From the IMG/VR virus record IMGVR_UViG_2778261570_000002, positions 1 to 4,504 of that record: a DNA stretch of 4,504 nt; one strand, 5' to 3'. Positions within the stretch are counted from its first letter, which is position 1, and each line of letters begins with the position of its first letter. A program made the translations under genes and the position numbers. The notes under the pieces were generated by a model that saw nothing but the letters and a program-made list of their open reading frames with translations, was not told the origin of the DNA and searched no databases. Origin of the DNA: a virus. Taxonomy: Duplodnaviria > Heunggongvirae > Uroviricota > Caudoviricetes. Positions 1-4,504 of this stretch are shown piece by piece.

Positions 1-107
1 CCGTTGCCGGAGCGCCCTTGCGAACAATTAACCTACTGCGCAAAAAATGAATCTGTGCGGGGGAATTATATCAACCGCGTGGAGAAGCGCCACAATTGCC
101 GAATAAC

Positions 108-140
108 AGGCAAAACAAAGGCCACCCGCTACGGTGGCCC
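108..140 (-). terminator. Putative Rho-independent terminator ending the leftward small-gene operon
   Basis: GC-rich 7-bp stem ggccacc (120-126) / ggtggcc (133-139) with a 6-nt loop. On the minus strand the hairpin is followed by a T-rich tract (complement of aacaaaacaaag, 108-119). It lies about 80 bp downstream of the stop of the 219..392 gene. Confidence 0.4.
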
Positions 141-218
141 TTCAACACAAGCTACACGTTATCCCCAACGCATGAGCATTACCGACAATGCCACATTTGC
201 GGCTGGTGGGCAATGTGA

Positions 219-392
219 TCAGTCAGATTTGGTTCGTTCCAAGGTTTGCAACGAGAGCTTTTTCCTGTGCTCTTTAAGGAATTGCTCAAGGGCAAAAGCA
301 CATGGCGCGAATCTTTCTGATTCATGCTCTATCTTTCTGCGCCGTCTTTTCCGTGTCGGTGATAATGTTTTGGTCAATTCTTTATCGGTCAT
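219..392 (-). CDS. Small, strongly basic hypothetical protein (57 aa from the second ATG; an alternative start at 407 gives 62 aa)
   Basis: Six-frame track ORF 219..407 (-). The internal ATG at 390-392 has an AGGA motif about 8 nt upstream. It sits 57 nt downstream of the 450..755 gene on the same strand. It contains a KRRRRK run suggesting nucleic-acid binding. No family recognised. Confidence 0.4.
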   Translation of the reverse strand: MTDKELTKTLSPTRKRRRRKIEHESERFAPCAFALEQFLKEHRKKLSLQTLERTKSD

Positions 393-449
393 TGTGTTGT
401 CCTGCATAGCAATGCGCCGTAATACCTTACACCACGGCGCTGGTGATGG

Positions 450-755
450 TTATTCCTGCTCTTTGGCCTTGCGACGCTGGAGTTCTTCACGTGCGACGGT
501 GACGAGCTGCCCGATCTCCTCGACAGCTTTGACTCCGATTTTTTCCACCTGCGCCAGCGCATCGAGCGAAGAAACCAGGGGATTTTCTCCGCTTCCTTCT
601 GCCTGGCGGCGGGCGATCTCACCGCGTACAGCCGTAACTATAAAATTCGCTTTAGTTTCCCATGGCTGTAGGGATGCCTCAATGCCACTCACTACTTCAT
701 GTGGAAATCTGGCATTCAGTTGCTGTGATTTATTGTTAACAGAACTCGTGGACAT
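450..755 (-). CDS. Hypothetical protein, 101 aa; first gene of the leftward unit, candidate regulator by position only
   Basis: ATG at 753-755 (minus strand) is preceded by a strong Shine-Dalgarno GGAGGTG (complement of 761-767) with a 6-nt spacer; stop at 450-452. The 180-aa track ORF (450..992) extends upstream through the operator-like repeats with a hydrophobic, low-complexity N-terminus and no RBS, so the shorter start is preferred. Confidence 0.6.
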   Translation of the reverse strand: MSTSSVNNKSQQLNARFPHEVVSGIEASLQPWETKANFIVTAVRGEIARRQAEGSGENPLVSSLDALAQVEKIGVKAVEEIGQLVTVAREELQRRKAKEQE

Positions 756-797
756 GTTTGCACCTCCGATTAATAACGGGATGCAGTGTAATACAAA

Positions 798-853
798 AGT
801 GAATACCAAAAAAGACTTGAAATGGTATTCACCAAAATGTAATCTGAATACCA
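798..853. promoter_or_regulatory. Operator-like repeats in the divergent control region (iteron-like half-sites)
   Basis: gtgaatacca (799-808) and its exact reverse complement tggtattcac (823-832) form a 10-bp inverted repeat with a 14-bp spacer, and a third copy tgaatacca lies at 845-853. The core tattcacc (826-833) is one mismatch from the iteron TGTTCACC. The repeats lie 45-100 bp upstream of the 755 start codon. Confidence 0.4.
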
Positions 854-1144
854 CAAGGGCTGATACATGCAATTCAGCAATTGAAACGACGAAGCCCCGC
901 ACTGTTGGAGCAGTAACGGGGCTTCTAACCAAACCGTTAACTGGAGTAACGATTATGGCTGTAAGACAGCATACCCCACGACTTGCGCACACACAAACGG
1001 TCTTTGTGTGGCGTTTTCTGGCACTAAGTGCCGGAGAATCTCAAATCGTCCACGTAACCGCCTGGACGGAACGCGAAGCGCGTAACCGTTGCCCGTCCGG
1101 TTGTGTCGCTGTATTCGCCGCCCGTATTCGTCAGGGGGTGCGCC

Positions 1145-1405
1145 ATGTGCAATAAAAACACGCCGGACGCAGCCGCCGAAGCCATCAAAACGCTAATGCA
1201 CGCGCTGATTGATATTTCATGCACGGCAGCAACCGCAGAAAAACACATTACCAGAGAGCCGGAGTATACAGGGGCAATAATCCCCCATTCGCTGGCCTAC
1301 GCACAGCTTACCGCTGATATGGCACTGAATGAGGCTAAAGCCATCCTGATTGCTGATTGTGAAAATGGGGGGGGGTTATGCGTGATGATCGTTTTAATGC
1401 CCTGA
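1145..1405 (+). CDS. Hypothetical small protein (86 aa), first ORF of the rightward replication operon
   Basis: ATG at 1145 is preceded by AGGGGGTG (1132-1139), a good SD with 5-nt spacing. The ORF ends at TGA 1403-1405 and its 3' end runs through a G9 tract. No family recognised. Confidence 0.45.
   Translation: MCNKNTPDAAAEAIKTLMHALIDISCTAATAEKHITREPEYTGAIIPHSLAYAQLTADMALNEAKAILIADCENGGGLCVMIVLMP
1367..1375. repeat. Homopolymeric G9 tract at the junction of two overlapping small ORFs
   Basis: Nine consecutive G read directly at 1367-1375. The tract encodes GGG in the 1145 frame and serves as the SD region for the ATG at 1378. Confidence 0.9.
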
Positions 1406-1611
1406 AACAGGAATTTGATGGCGCACCGGATGATACAGGCGATGCGTTGCTGGCTGTTAATGACCTGATAAAGGCCGCATGTTTTTTAATTGGAACCGCT
1501 GAACATTCAGGAACCGGCAACGATATTCTTATTATTGCGTCGGATTATGCTGAATATGTGGCAGAGGCGCGTTACAGAAGAAAATTACCGGAGGATGTAA
1601 GCCATGCATAA
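1378..1611 (+). CDS. Hypothetical small protein (77 aa)
   Basis: ATG at 1378 lies 2 nt after the G9 tract, which can act as SD. It overlaps the preceding ORF by 28 nt in a different frame. Stop TAA at 1609-1611. No family recognised. Confidence 0.45.
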   Translation: MRDDRFNALKQEFDGAPDDTGDALLAVNDLIKAACFLIGTAEHSGTGNDILIIASDYAEYVAEARYRRKLPEDVSHA

Positions 1612-1756
1612 TCATGAAGCACACTTACCTGTAGTGCTGAATGTACCGTCAGATTATACGGGGCGCGTTTTGATATTCCTGGATAAAGGGAAAGTGAAAT
1701 CACAATGCCGCCTTAGAAATAATGAGGTTGTTGGTTCTCTGGCTTTTTTTTTCTGA
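1604..1756 (+). CDS. Possible small ORF (50 aa) not in the supplied track
   Basis: ATG at 1604 has a strong SD GGAGGA (1590-1595) with 8-nt spacing. The start overlaps the stop of the 1378..1611 ORF. The ORF ends at TGA 1754-1756 after a T9 run that encodes FFF. Confidence 0.25.
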   Translation: MHNHEAHLPVVLNVPSDYTGRVLIFLDKGKVKSQCRLRNNEVVGSLAFFF

Positions 1757-1809
1757 AGCCTGTATTCGTGCCGGAATAAAACCGGAATCACTGACAGGAA
1801 AATAAAACC

Positions 1810-2124
1810 ATGAAAAAGAAAAATTCTGGCTTTACTGCCAGCGGCCCCGCTCGGCCTGAAATCCGCCCCGACGATATTTTCAAAGATAAATACGGCGGAC
1901 GAATAACGATAAAAACCGTCGATGATTTTCGCGTGACTTATATCCGCGAAGGTTATGCGCATCCCTGCGTGTCGTCACATATGCGTTTTGAGAGTGAATT
2001 CACCCTGGTAAGCAAAGCACCACCAGCGAACTTAAGCGACATCGACAGAATCATGCGCGTTACAGGTATGGAACGCATTAAGGCAGTACGTGAAATTATT
2101 CGTGAGCGGGGAAAGGCAAAATGA
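1810..2124 (+). CDS. Hypothetical protein (104 aa), translationally coupled to the helicase gene
   Basis: ATG at 1810 has AGGA about 10 nt upstream. Its stop TGA (2122-2124) overlaps the ATG (2121-2123) of the next gene as ATGA. No family recognised. Confidence 0.5.
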   Translation: MKKKNSGFTASGPARPEIRPDDIFKDKYGGRITIKTVDDFRVTYIREGYAHPCVSSHMRFESEFTLVSKAPPANLSDIDRIMRVTGMERIKAVREIIRERGKAK

Positions 2125-3926
2125 AACTGGCACCGAACTTAAAAAAACAGCCACACGACAAAATGACCGAAGTCATTATTTTTGCGGGTAGTGATGCCTG
2201 GGCGCACGCGAAACAATGGCAGGAGCAGGACGGGCGACTTGCCGGCGACAATGTTCCGCCTGTATGGCTTGGAGACAGCCAGCTTGACGAACTGGCAGAC
2301 CTGAAAATTATCGACGATGGTCGCTATTGTGTCCGGCTGTACAAGGCAGGCCACATCAAGCCATCAAATATTAATGCCATCGGGCAAAAGCTGGCGGCGG
2401 CAGGTGTACGGGATGCGAATTATTACCCTGAGGGGATGCACAGCCAGAAGCGGGAGAACTGGCACGAATATCTGGAGCGTGAGCGCCAGAATCTTTCTGA
2501 TGGTCTGGTTATTCAGCTTCCTGTTAAGAAAAAAACAGAAGACAGCGCCGCACCACTGGCGCTTAACCAGATGGGAGCAAGCCAGCGCGGCGAAGTTCTC
2601 CTGGCACGTTATGGCGGTGAACTGGCAATTAATGCGGACTCTGACACCGTTCACCACTACAACGGCGTTGTATGGGAGCCGGTACAGGATAAAGAGTTAC
2701 AGCGGGCTATGGCGCAGATTTTTATTGATGCGGAGATCAGTTATTCGCAGAACGCCATCAAATCGGCGGTCGATACAATGAAGTTAAGTTTGCCCGTAAT
2801 GGGGAATACCGCCCGTAACCTGATTGGATTCAGTAACGGTGTTTTTGATACCCGGACAGGCGATTTTCGGGAGCATGACAAAAACGACTGGCTGTTAATT
2901 GCCAGTGAATTACCGTTCAGCCCGCCAGCAGAGGGGGAAACGCTGGCAACGCATGCGCCGAATTTCTGGAAATGGTTGCGCCGTTCGGTGGCTGAGAATG
3001 ACCGTAAAGCGGATCGCGTACTGGCGGCGTTATTCATGGTGCTGGCGAACCGATACGACTGGCAGTTATTTCTTGAGGTAACGGGGCCGGGTGGAAGCGG
3101 TAAAAGCGTAATGGCGGAGATTTGCACCATGCTGGCGGGTAAGGCCAACACGGTATCGGCAAGCATGAAGGCGCTGGAAGATGCCAGGGAACGCGCGTTA
3201 GTGGTTGGATTTTCGCTGATTATCATGCCGGATATGACCCGCTACGCTGGTGATGGCGCAGGAATTAAGGCCATTACAGGCGGTGACAAGGTGGCAATCG
3301 ACCCGAAGCATAAAGCCCCCTACTCAACACGCATTCAGGCGGTCGTGCTGGCGGTGAACAATAACGCCATGTCATTCAGTGACCGCAGCGGGGGGATCTC
3401 ACGTCGTCGGGTGATATTCAATTTTTCGGAGGTTGTACCGGAAAACGAACGCGACCCCATGCTGGCAGAAAAAATAGAAGGAGAGCTGGCGGTTGTGATT
3501 CGCCACCTGCTTACTCGTTTTTCTGACCAGGACGAAGCTAAACGCCTGCTGTATGAGCAGCAGAAATCAGAAGAAGCACTGGTGATAAAACGCGAGGGCG
3601 ATTCGCTGGTGGACTTCTGCGGCTATCTCATGTCGTCGGTAATGTGTGATGGTCTGTTAGTGGGTAATGCCGAAATTATTCCGTTCAGTCCGCGCAGGTA
3701 TCTTTATCACGCCTATCTGGCATATATGAGGGCACACGGATTCGGTAAACCTGTAACACTGACGCGCTTCGGTAAAGATATGCCGGGGGCAATGGCGGAA
3801 TATGGCAGGGAGTATATGAAACGGAAAACGAAGCACGGTTTGCGTTCAAATGTGACCCTTACAGAGGATTCAGAAGACTGGATGCCATCATGTGCATCGG
3901 TCACAAATGACGATGGAAAAAATTAA
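2121..3926 (+). CDS. Replication protein: SF3 (D5/P4-alpha-type) helicase with a probable C-terminal origin-binding region (601 aa)
   Basis: Longest ORF in the window. Walker A GPGGSGKS at aa 322-329 (nt 3084-3107). Walker B-like hydrophobic stretch ending in Asp, LIIMPD, at aa 366-371. SF3 motif C with Asn, VLAVNNN, at aa 409-415. A cluster of P4-type iterons lies immediately downstream. SD-like GGGGAAAGG upstream of the ATG. Confidence 0.88.
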   Translation: MKLAPNLKKQPHDKMTEVIIFAGSDAWAHAKQWQEQDGRLAGDNVPPVWLGDSQLDELADLKIIDDGRYCVRLYKAGHIKPSNINAIGQKLAAAGVRDANYYPEGMHSQKRENWHEYLERERQNLSDGLVIQLPVKKKTEDSAAPLALNQMGASQRGEVLLARYGGELAINADSDTVHHYNGVVWEPVQDKELQRAMAQIFIDAEISYSQNAIKSAVDTMKLSLPVMGNTARNLIGFSNGVFDTRTGDFREHDKNDWLLIASELPFSPPAEGETLATHAPNFWKWLRRSVAENDRKADRVLAALFMVLANRYDWQLFLEVTGPGGSGKSVMAEICTMLAGKANTVSASMKALEDARERALVVGFSLIIMPDMTRYAGDGAGIKAITGGDKVAIDPKHKAPYSTRIQAVVLAVNNNAMSFSDRSGGISRRRVIFNFSEVVPENERDPMLAEKIEGELAVVIRHLLTRFSDQDEAKRLLYEQQKSEEALVIKREGDSLVDFCGYLMSSVMCDGLLVGNAEIIPFSPRRYLYHAYLAYMRAHGFGKPVTLTRFGKDMPGAMAEYGREYMKRKTKHGLRSNVTLTEDSEDWMPSCASVTNDDGKN

Positions 3927-3937
3927 ACTTATGGAAT

Positions 3938-4168
3938 AACTGTTCACCACTGTTCACCCTATCATAAATGTCTTTTATATCAGTACATTATAGGGTGAAC
4001 AGTTATTTATGAACTGTTCACCAAACTATTCACTGTTCACCTTTTTGATTGTTTATTGAGCTTAAGGGTGAACAGTGGTGAACAGTTGGTGAATAGTTTT
4101 TGTGAAACTGTTCACCCCTTAACATCATGAATAAAAAGGGAAAATCTCAAAAGGTGAACAGGTGAAGG
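3938..4168. repeat. Iteron cluster, putative origin of replication (P4 ori/crr-like)
   Basis: Nine perfect copies of TGTTCACC: on the + strand at 3941, 3951, 4015, 4034 and 4109, and as GGTGAACA at 3994, 4067, 4077 and 4153. At least three one-mismatch copies at 4027, 4088 and 4161. AT-rich spacers at 3959-3992, 4120-4150 and 4169-4200. It is directly 3' of the helicase gene. Confidence 0.7.
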
Positions 4169-4212
4169 GTTAAAATGCAAAAATTTTATTTTATTGCTGT
4201 GAGGTAAAGCCC

Positions 4213-4458
4213 GTGACAACGAAGCACGCAAAAAAACCACAATCTCACGCCCTTGATTTGACAGAACACTGGCTGAGAGTGGCGATAAAAATCATCGATC
4301 GCAACGCGGGAGAAGGATACGCGAAAGCACATCCTGAACTGATAAGCGCATTCATGACAACGGCGGCGGCAAACTTTGCCACGCTGACAGAACGAGAGAT
4401 TGCCGAAGCGGAACAGGTGACAACCATCAACGTTAAACCCGGAGAGCAGACAGCATGA
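4213..4458 (+). CDS. Hypothetical protein (81 aa), first gene of the operon downstream of the origin
   Basis: GTG start at 4213 with SD GAGG (4201-4204) and 8-nt spacing. Its stop TGA (4456-4458) overlaps the ATG (4455) of the following gene. No family recognised. Confidence 0.5.
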   Translation: MTTKHAKKPQSHALDLTEHWLRVAIKIIDRNAGEGYAKAHPELISAFMTTAAANFATLTEREIAEAEQVTTINVKPGEQTA

Positions 4459-4504
4459 CAGCACAGATAGCGGCTTACGGGCGGCTGGTGGCTGACCCGC
4501 AGTT
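4455..4504 (+). CDS. 5' end of a gene running off the window (16 codons visible); SSB-like N-terminal motif, tentative
   Basis: ATG at 4455 with SD GGAGAG (4441-4446) and 8-nt spacing; ATGA overlap with the upstream stop. The visible peptide MTAQIAAYGRLVADPQ resembles the hhhhG(N/R)LxxDP(E/Q) start of OB-fold single-stranded DNA-binding proteins. Only 48 nt are available. Confidence 0.35.
   Translation, partial: MTAQIAAYGRLVADPQ

Follow-up and report, generated by a model that had tools for sequence, protein, structure and literature searches.

The question raised by this locus is which elements control the divergent region that separates a leftward gene for a protein of 101 amino acids (aa) from a rightward operon of small genes and a primase–helicase gene, in a stretch of 4,504 nucleotides hereafter called the window (positions 1 to 4,504 of the IMG/VR virus record IMGVR_UViG_2778261570_000002, Caudoviricetes). 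An earlier note, made from the letters of the window alone, had described positions 756–1144 as a 390-bp divergent control region with operator-like repeats, no convincing open reading frame (ORF) and a series of hairpins that might form a processed immunity RNA in the leader of the replication operon. Comparison with about 80 related loci, obtained from scans of viral contigs (a scan of genome contigs with the 66-aa Icd protein returned just 2 loci), supports the divergent control region with operator-like repeats and shows three things within it: an ORF, non-random operators that co-vary with a protein, and a conserved, covarying RNA structure on the minus strand. Positions 756–954, together with the first icd codons, probably constitute the master switch of a satellite, a dual lock resembling the immI region of phage P22 in which a repressor is combined with an antisense RNA, a reading that is built on sequence comparison and that we hold with reasonable though not high confidence.

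The first of these points concerns the extent of the region itself, which is bounded by two genes.

450–755, minus strand: ylcI-type gene, 101 aa, predicted ribbon–helix–helix (RHH) operator-binding repressor.
955–1155, plus strand: icd-like ORF of 66 aa that opens the rightward operon, with the Shine–Dalgarno (SD) sequence GGAG at 943–946.

The second of them occupies much of the interval in which no convincing ORF had been seen. Its product matches the Icd-like family NF033153 of NCBIfam with 62.8 bits (E 2.3e-17, residues 17–60, curated cutoff 25 bits), GGAG stands 8 nt 5' of its ATG, and the counterpart of 955–1155 in RefSeq relatives is annotated as Icd-like. Moreover, Icd homologues with 40–93% identity occupy the equivalent position, divergent from a YlcI-type gene, at about 78 of the 80 loci. 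The stop codon of the icd-like ORF overlaps the ATG of the next ORF (1145). The true divergent gap is, therefore, 756–954, that is, 199 bp rather than 390, and the hairpins and the repeat placed earlier at 990–1088 are coding sequence, since half of the supposed leader belongs to the icd-like gene.

Within this shorter gap, the inverted repeat GTGAATACCA / TGGTATTCAC (799–808 / 823–832) and its third copy (845–853) are present as the earlier note had described them. The segment 756–954 contains 4 inverted repeats of 9 bp or longer against 0.008 expected, and for TGAATACCA, when at most one mismatch is allowed, the window has 5 occurrences where 0.98 ± 0.93 would be expected, a count that 0 of 200 shuffles reach. 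The five half-sites, three of them exact and two degenerate, alternate in orientation at a distance of 21–24 bp from centre to centre, and they are interleaved with the predicted promoters as follows.

777–786: operator O0, degenerate, GGGATGCAG resembling GGTATTCAG, over the putative ylcI transcription start.
788–793, minus strand: putative −10 box of the leftward (ylcI) promoter, TATTAC, with a poor −35 box.
799–808: operator O1, GTGAATACCA, in the spacer of the ylcI promoter.
817–845, plus strand: predicted promoter P(icd), with −35 TTGAAA at 817–822, a 17-nt spacer, −10 TAATCT at 840–845 and a start near 853.
823–832: operator O2, TGGTATTCAC, in the spacer of P(icd).
844–853: operator O3, CTGAATACCA, over the −10 box and start of P(icd).
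868–877: operator O4, degenerate, TGCAATTCAG (8/10), with equivalent full sites in other operator types.

Both promoters were identified from boxes that are conserved in position among relatives. The leftward −10 position holds a conserved box in other types (TATACT, TATATT, TAATGT), and at the position of P(icd) a TTGACA-like −35 box and a TAAnnT −10 box recur among relatives; a simple promoter scan flags the equivalent of P(icd) in locus L032 (TTGACA-17-TAAAGT, 10/12) and does not flag the window's own copy. The position of O0 is occupied by a full site in relatives, e.g., GGTGGTATTCAG in L021. One half-site lies within each promoter spacer and one over each predicted start, which is, as far as sequence can tell, the layout of a repressed and autoregulated pair of divergent promoters.

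The protein most likely to read these sites is the product of the leftward gene. At least six types of half-site are found among the related islands (GAATACC, GTAAGAC, GTGTnnACAC, TGTGATTC, TGTGTTTC and TGTATATCAC), and these pair with the N-terminal segments KSQQLNARF, KSQSLTARI, RSQMKNIRF, KSKQISIRI, KSQLTTVRV and KSQMTTIRV, respectively, every half-site type going with its own N-terminal strand of the YlcI-type protein across about 80 islands. The operator sequence, thus, tracks the residues of the strand, and where the protein is 80% identical and has the window's strand, as in L021, the GAATACC half-site is retained. The earlier note had proposed either the helicase or the 101-aa protein as the binder; the latter is the best candidate, since the half-sites co-vary with it, and the former loses ground, since they do not follow the primase.

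The 101-aa protein belongs to the YlcI/YnfO family (NCBIfam NF041551, 53.6 bits over residues 9–50, curated cutoff 30) and is modular, with a variable N-terminal part of ~40 aa and a near-invariant C-terminal part of ~60 aa across all operator types. The N-terminal strand QLNARFPHEV aligns weakly with QFNLRWPREV of Arc and HFNFRMPMEV of Mnt, i.e., with the DNA-reading β-strand and the first helix of these repressors. One UniRef homologue bears the CopG family name, and a Pfam match to PF07704 (E 0.079) lies below the cutoff of that family. Profile searches of PDB with the 101-aa protein gave no RHH match and a weak HhH-like match to Hef/XPF (E 0.007), and the single-sequence AlphaFold model is poor (predicted local distance difference test, pLDDT, 67). 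The C-terminal ~60 aa (window 450–629) form one long predicted helix with pLDDT 78–95 and may serve as an oligomerisation or inducer-sensing domain. Among the papers open to search, none was found that deals with what YlcI/YnfO proteins do or with an RHH repressor in phage-inducible chromosomal islands (PICIs).

The third component lies on the strand opposite to icd, and its predicted parts are listed below.

884–962, minus strand: predicted cis-antisense RNA of ~77 nt, sar-like (about 960 to 884), complementary to icd mRNA positions about +32 to +108.
891–925, minus strand: stem-loop 2, a 14-bp GC-rich hairpin and probable intrinsic terminator, with the tail GUCGUUU from 890 to 884.
928–959, minus strand: stem-loop 1, a 12-bp stem rich in G·U pairs with the 7-nt loop CUCCAGU (946 to 940).
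968–973, minus strand: putative −10 box of the antisense promoter, TATGCT (973 to 968), in icd codons 5–7, suggested by its conservation.
996 to 991, minus strand: possible −35 box of the antisense promoter, TTGTGT.

The hairpin at 891–925 and the 29 nt that follow it up to the icd ATG are conserved in all operator types. The 9-bp stem of the earlier note is part of it and is real, although its coordinates were one base off (actual positions 891–899 / 917–925). The predicted antisense RNA covers the icd SD and ATG, and it folds with −35 kcal/mol (z = −6.2). A covariance model of the element, R1, scores 95.5 bits on the minus strand at 878–962, while the plus strand gives a local match of 19.5 bits to the hairpin alone. 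In stem-loop 2, the cells of the 14 pairs in 45 distinct sequences break down into 526 Watson–Crick, 79 with G·U when read on the minus strand (A·C when read on the plus strand), none with the opposite asymmetry, and 25 of other kinds. Cells that can pair amount to 96.0%, as compared with 83.7 ± 0.9% in shuffles and 41–49% when partners are slid, and 7 of the 14 pairs have changed on both sides. The energies agree in direction, with the minus strand more stable in 41 of 42 distinct variants and equal in the remaining one (mean −5.3 kcal/mol), and the tail after the stem has, on average, 4.1 U per 8 nt when read on the minus strand versus 1.1 on the plus strand (e.g., GUCGUUU in the window, and GCUUUUU and GUUUUUUU in others). 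The conserved hairpin is, by these counts of pairs and energies, a minus-strand structure and not the plus-strand leader hairpin proposed earlier.

Stem-loop 1 shows the same preference, the minus strand being favoured in all 33 distinct variants (mean −4.75 kcal/mol), and it is kept with different bases in three sequence types (CGUUA/UAACG, CGAUA/UAUCG and AACG/CGUU). Its loop CUCCAGU is the complement of the icd SD, and its 3' side forms, together with the linker UGGUUAGA, the invariant segment TCTAACCA. Upstream of it, a TAnnnT box is found in all icd types (TATGCT, TAGACT, TATCAT, TAAGCT, TATGAT and TATAAT), although the residues encoded there vary (QHT, QST, HDT, QLN, QSN and KST); in every case the middle codon has T as its third base. 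From the end of the box to the first paired base of stem-loop 1 the distance is 8 nt throughout, even though the distance to the ATG shifts by 6 nt between icd types. A search of the window for a second target complementary to the antisense RNA found none. An RNA-based layer of control, as anticipated in the earlier note, is thus likely, although not in the form of a processed plus-strand leader RNA.

These components may be assembled into a dual lock. The YlcI-type RHH repressor would bind the five phased half-sites (777–877) and so occupy the spacer and the start of both back-to-back promoters, which would shut the rightward icd–replication operon and render ylcI autoregulated. A leftward promoter within the first icd codons would make the antisense RNA of ~77 nt (from about 960 to 884), in which loop 1 would act as an anti-SD and stem-loop 2 would terminate transcription at 884–890. 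This RNA would pair with the ribosome-binding site and ATG of icd and block the translation of Icd, and the downstream replication genes would be lowered in turn via the overlapping icd stop and next ATG (1145–1155) and via polarity. In this scheme, we infer the promoters, the transcript ends and the repression.

Several observations weigh against the dual lock. The promoter hexamers of the window are weak (TAATCT, TATGCT, TTGTGT), and the terminator tail contains just about 4 U in 8 nt. Neither in the window nor in its relatives do simple scans for promoters and terminators flag the antisense unit; the terminator scan requires at least 5 T in 8, and in a P22 control the same scanner misses the known Psar promoter and sar terminator. 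Moreover, the alignments of the 101-aa protein with Arc and Mnt are short and weak (E 0.0025 and 0.059, respectively), and the covariation counts, unlike the strand asymmetry, are inflated by shared ancestry, many of the loci being close relatives. In addition, induction of Gram-negative PICIs proceeds, according to published work, via an activator, AlpA (PMC6092414; 10.1101/2022.09.08.507074).

An insulating function is the first alternative to be considered. The minus-strand hairpin would, in this case, be a terminator that shields the promoters and ylcI from stray antisense or convergent transcription, with no regulatory RNA involved. The strand asymmetry and the U-rich tail indicate a minus-strand terminator and not its function, and the antisense promoter of the window is below consensus, both of which suit an insulator. 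This explanation, however, leaves without a cause the conserved stem-loop 1 with its anti-SD loop, the invariant linker UGGUUAGA, and the fixed 8-nt spacing of the TAnnnT box despite coding changes and a 6-nt shift relative to the ATG, and the layout as a whole corresponds to that of a regulatory RNA, sar. We, therefore, regard it as rather unlikely, though it deserves to be kept in view.

A second alternative attributes to icd and its antisense RNA mainly the role of a stabilisation or abortive-infection module akin to type I toxin–antitoxin (TA) systems such as SymE/SymR, rather than that of an operon gate. A cis-antisense RNA over the ribosome-binding site of a toxin gene is the design of type I TA systems, and the Icd of phage P1 stops cell division through FtsZ (PMC11897509). 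The position of icd speaks for a gate instead, since it is the first cistron, its stop codon overlaps the next start and it lies behind a promoter predicted to be controlled by a repressor. The two roles are not mutually exclusive, and as the main function we consider the TA-like one unlikely.

A still less probable reading is that of the earlier note, in which plus-strand leader hairpins form an immunity RNA, like CI of P4 or c4 of P1, or an attenuator, so that transcription would stop prematurely ahead of the replication genes. The plus-strand leader does fold well (z = −4.0), a terminator-like hairpin followed by UUUU lies 35 nt into icd and is conserved in the window's icd subtype, P1 has an immunity RNA ahead of icd (PMC8198154), and C4/isrK RNAs occur in some Gram-negative PICIs (PMC10111431). 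Nevertheless, scans with Rfam (version 15) of the window, of a narrower region and of related whole islands gave no C4/isrK match, the thresholds being E ≤ 1 for the window, E ≤ 10 for 840–1000 and the gathering score for the related islands. The plus strand has A·C wherever the minus strand has G·U (79 vs 0) and lacks a U-tract after the 891–925 hairpin, the intragenic hairpin is missing from other icd types, and the leader hairpins of the earlier note fall for the most part in coding sequence and are not maintained. The analogy with P4 CI and P1 c4 fails, accordingly, both in family and in strand.

Several of the elements on which that reading was based lie inside icd and were found as described, namely the 8-bp hairpin (990–997 / 1003–1010) followed by GCGTTTTCT, the hairpins ggcac-taa-gtgcc (1020–1032) and acgcg-aag-cgcgt (1071–1083), and the repeat cgtaaccg at 1053 and 1081. 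Inverted repeats of at least 5 bp within 955–1155 number 5 against 1.4 ± 1.3 expected, a marginal excess (3% of shuffles reach 5), two of the five being nested in a single hairpin, and this segment is only mildly more structured than its shuffles (z = −2.2). The palindrome ACGCG-AAG-CGCGT encodes the conserved peptide motif E-R-E-A-R of the Icd-like family, and the cgtaaccg repeat and the 1020–1032 stem are disrupted without compensation in close relatives. Folding and covariation across homologues, which the earlier note had suggested as a check, thus uphold the 891–925 stem, on the minus strand, and find the 1020–1032 stem broken; as to the intragenic elements in general, the relatives are too similar for covariation testing. 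One of them merits an entry of its own.

990–1018, plus strand: 8-bp hairpin followed by GCGUUUUCU, within icd codons 12–21, flagged by the terminator scan.

This hairpin is identical in all 7 members of the window's icd subtype, and 2.2% of shuffles contain an 8-bp stem by chance. The hairpin may simply follow from the HTQT.FVW codons, may supply the −35 box (TTGTGT) of the antisense promoter, or may be a translation-sensitive attenuator.

The weakest alternative, in which the repeats at 799–853 would be iteron-like sites coupling replication to transcription through the primase–helicase, can be put aside as highly improbable, for although TATTCACC in the control region differs by one base from TGTTCACC of the origin iteron, and the origin holds variants such as CTATTCAC, L001 has an identical control region with a DUF927 primase and TAACCCGCA iterons but no TGTTCACC, islands with 7–10 CTGTTCACC iterons carry other operator types, and the operators co-vary with the YlcI N-terminus instead. 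The one-mismatch likeness to the iteron reported earlier is, therefore, literally correct and does not carry the meaning given to it.

In the origin at 3925–4165, an AT-rich centre is surrounded by about 9 copies of CTGTTCACC, which occur in both orientations; Rfam matches on it to plant miRNAs are spurious. In L001 the control region is 100% identical across window positions 700–1200, and the iterons lie in its own origin.

L001 12587–12731: origin of L001, with TAACCCGCA iterons.

The dissociation is double, since L001 combines the same operators with different iterons, while L092 and L113 combine the same iterons with different operators. The repeat, in other words, does not travel with a cognate replication protein in L001, L092 or L113, and operators that act as iterons were rejected as a candidate. 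The half-site follows neither the primase nor the origin iterons, so that its likeness to an iteron is coincidental, and the combination in L001 of an identical control region with another primase and other iterons indicates that control and replication modules are shuffled.

The elements discussed so far belong to a window that reads, from left to right, as the leftward 101-aa gene (450–755), the gap, rightward small ORFs, a DUF4222 gene, the primase–helicase gene and the origin.

2121–3926, rightward: 601-aa primase–helicase of the D5/P4 type.
About 3925–4165: iteron-rich origin.

The closest complete relatives of the window are chromosomal islands of E. coli of 10–12 kb, which contain int, an alpA-type helix–turn–helix (HTH) gene, the control and primase block, SSB, and capsid or packaging genes. 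The 4.5-kb window alone represents the control region, primase and origin only; L002 and L001 have the complete complement within ~10–12 kb, with int, an alpA-type HTH gene, a primase gene next to an iteron origin, and genes for capsid or packaging. By their gene content, these islands are PICIs, either classical or capsid-forming (cf-PICIs). One relative island is inserted within the terminase gene of a prophage, and such a placement within a prophage has been described for helper-embedded PICIs (PMC10111431; PMC6092414). DNA resembling window positions 700–1200 is found in 1170 of 5426 complete E. coli genomes, and E. coli 042 has a copy with 87.5% identity.

Some variation was observed around the two halves of the module. 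At L086 1734–2330 (Klebsiella phage P12620-1), the antisense-RNA/icd module stands beside a different divergent gene, and other divergent genes are also found at L095, L109, L111, L115, L119, L124, L127, L129, L139 and L144; these alternative genes encode Arc/CopG-like proteins of 55–75 aa that end in ...GIEPKG, and every one of them is accompanied by inverted repeats of its own. In PQ569648, an annotated coding sequence of 253 aa appears to be miscalled, since it spans the repressor gene and icd. Decayed copies of the module occur at L085 1960–2100 and L087 1960–2100 (phages mEp460_ev081 and vB_YpM_46, respectively), where the score of the RNA model is 54.6 bits and the reading frame of icd is truncated or interrupted by a stop codon. 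The adjoining gene, of 1350 bp, is identical in the two phages, one lambdoid and the other P2-like, which suggests that the fragment travels with an inserted element.

Other observations concern the flanks of the control region. At window 112–139, GGCCACC-cgcta-cGGTGGCC is followed by TTTGTTTTG on the minus strand; this looks like an intrinsic terminator that would close a leftward unit made of ylcI (755 to 450) and a 62-aa ORF (407 to 219). To the right, a run of G at window 1367–1375 comprises nine residues in the window and eight in L001 and L002. In these two loci ORF2 ends in ...ENGGGYA and its TGA overlaps the next ATG (ATGCGTGA), whereas the extra G of the window alters the last residues of ORF2 to ...ENGGGLCVMIVLMP; the difference reflects either true variation in homopolymer length or an error of sequencing. 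Lastly, the third small ORF (window 1604–1800) is unrelated to the cassette at L001 9899–10160 and L002 9385–9640, a difference that, by sequence, is a replacement of gene cassettes within the early operon.

As regards what these elements mean for the islands, only an activator, AlpA, has been named in Gram-negative PICIs, and their global repressor has been called 'unclear' (PMC6092414). The module is a testable candidate for the silencing of a potentially division-blocking gene and of the replication operon in such islands. In the literature open to search, no paper on an antisense RNA opposite icd-like genes was found, and the predicted RNA has no counterpart family in Rfam 15. Since a repressor combined with a cis-antisense RNA is familiar from P22 immI, what is described here would be a new family and a new setting rather than a new principle. 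As a bolder and tentative proposal, to which we attach distinctly less confidence than to the dual lock, the YlcI-type RHH protein and the sar-like RNA might be the missing immunity, that is, the master repression, of many enterobacterial PICIs and cf-PICIs. If this were true, the DNA-reading heads of the YlcI-type repressor would be exchangeable, with at least six specificities; the invariant C-terminal helix would be the target of a helper-phage or AlpA-dependent factor that induces the island; and the RNA would represent a new and widespread antisense family of phages and satellites, distantly related to sar and absent from Rfam.

Known control systems share different parts of this arrangement. 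In the islands of Staphylococcus aureus pathogenicity island (SaPI) type and in Gram-positive PICIs, as with Stl(Rpr)–Str, the repressor gene points toward int and is divergent from the excision–replication operon, and many repressor specificities exist among islands (PMC6092414). Stl proteins are larger HTH repressors, unlike the YlcI-type protein. To our knowledge, no antisense RNA is known in Stl–Str control regions. The type I TA system SymE/SymR offers an antisense RNA that overlies the ribosome-binding site and the start codon in the mRNA for a small protein with toxic potential; the Icd-like protein, however, is neither a membrane peptide nor a nuclease, and its gene is the first of a longer operon. 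Phage P4, with its CI RNA, likewise applies an RNA brake to a satellite operon that holds a primase–helicase gene, but it does so by premature termination via seqA/seqC pairing on the same strand, and its RNA belongs to the C4 family.

The immI region of P1 and P7 (c4–icd–ant) comes closer in its target. There too an Icd-family ORF is the first translated gene, an antisense-type RNA gates icd translation at the ribosome site and downstream genes depend on icd (PMC8198154). The c4 RNA, in contrast, comes from the same strand as icd and from upstream of it, and once processed it works by way of short boxes of complementarity, whereas the RNA predicted here would be a cis-antisense transcript of the opposite strand. 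Coupling of the downstream P1 genes to icd, and Rho polarity on them, were reportedly described by Biere et al. in 1992.

The immI region of P22 (mnt facing arc–ant) offers the fullest likeness. It has a divergent gene for a small RHH protein and operators in back-to-back promoters (PMC7968456), the RHH fold being a prediction in the present case. Its target differs, being ant in P22 and here an icd-like gene that heads the replication operon of a satellite, and P22 has an arc cistron where none is found here. The sar RNA is a cis-antisense RNA of 68 nt that starts just inside its target gene, as is predicted for the RNA opposite icd. It contains two stem-loops, with CUCC as anti-SD in loop 1, a weak U tail and a terminator hairpin that ends about 30 nt upstream of the target ATG, all as in the predicted RNA of the window. 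Stem-loop 1 has 12 bp and a 7-nt loop here versus 6 bp and a 16-nt loop in sar. Sequence likeness is confined to the terminator hairpin, whose outer stem is near-identical in both (GAAGCCC..GGGGCUUC / GAAGCCC...GGGGCTTC). In line with this, the Rfam model of sar (RF00262), which represents the sole Rfam family to touch this region, matches with 16.8 bits (E 0.43) over model positions 32–64, i.e., the terminator hairpin only, and stays below the gathering score of 43, as compared with 97.8 bits for P22 itself. R1, in turn, recovers only the terminator hairpin of sar in P22 (15.8 bits, E 0.16), so that homology with sar is not established. The layout, nonetheless, is that of sar, with an RNA on the strand opposite its target, an anti-SD in loop 1, a terminator hairpin next to it and an overlap with the ribosome-binding site. 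By analogy, the element appears to be built like sar and to work like it, leaving membership of the same family unestablished, and the closest model for the whole region is, on these likenesses, the immI of P22, with Mnt/Arc and sar, rather than the immunity of P4.

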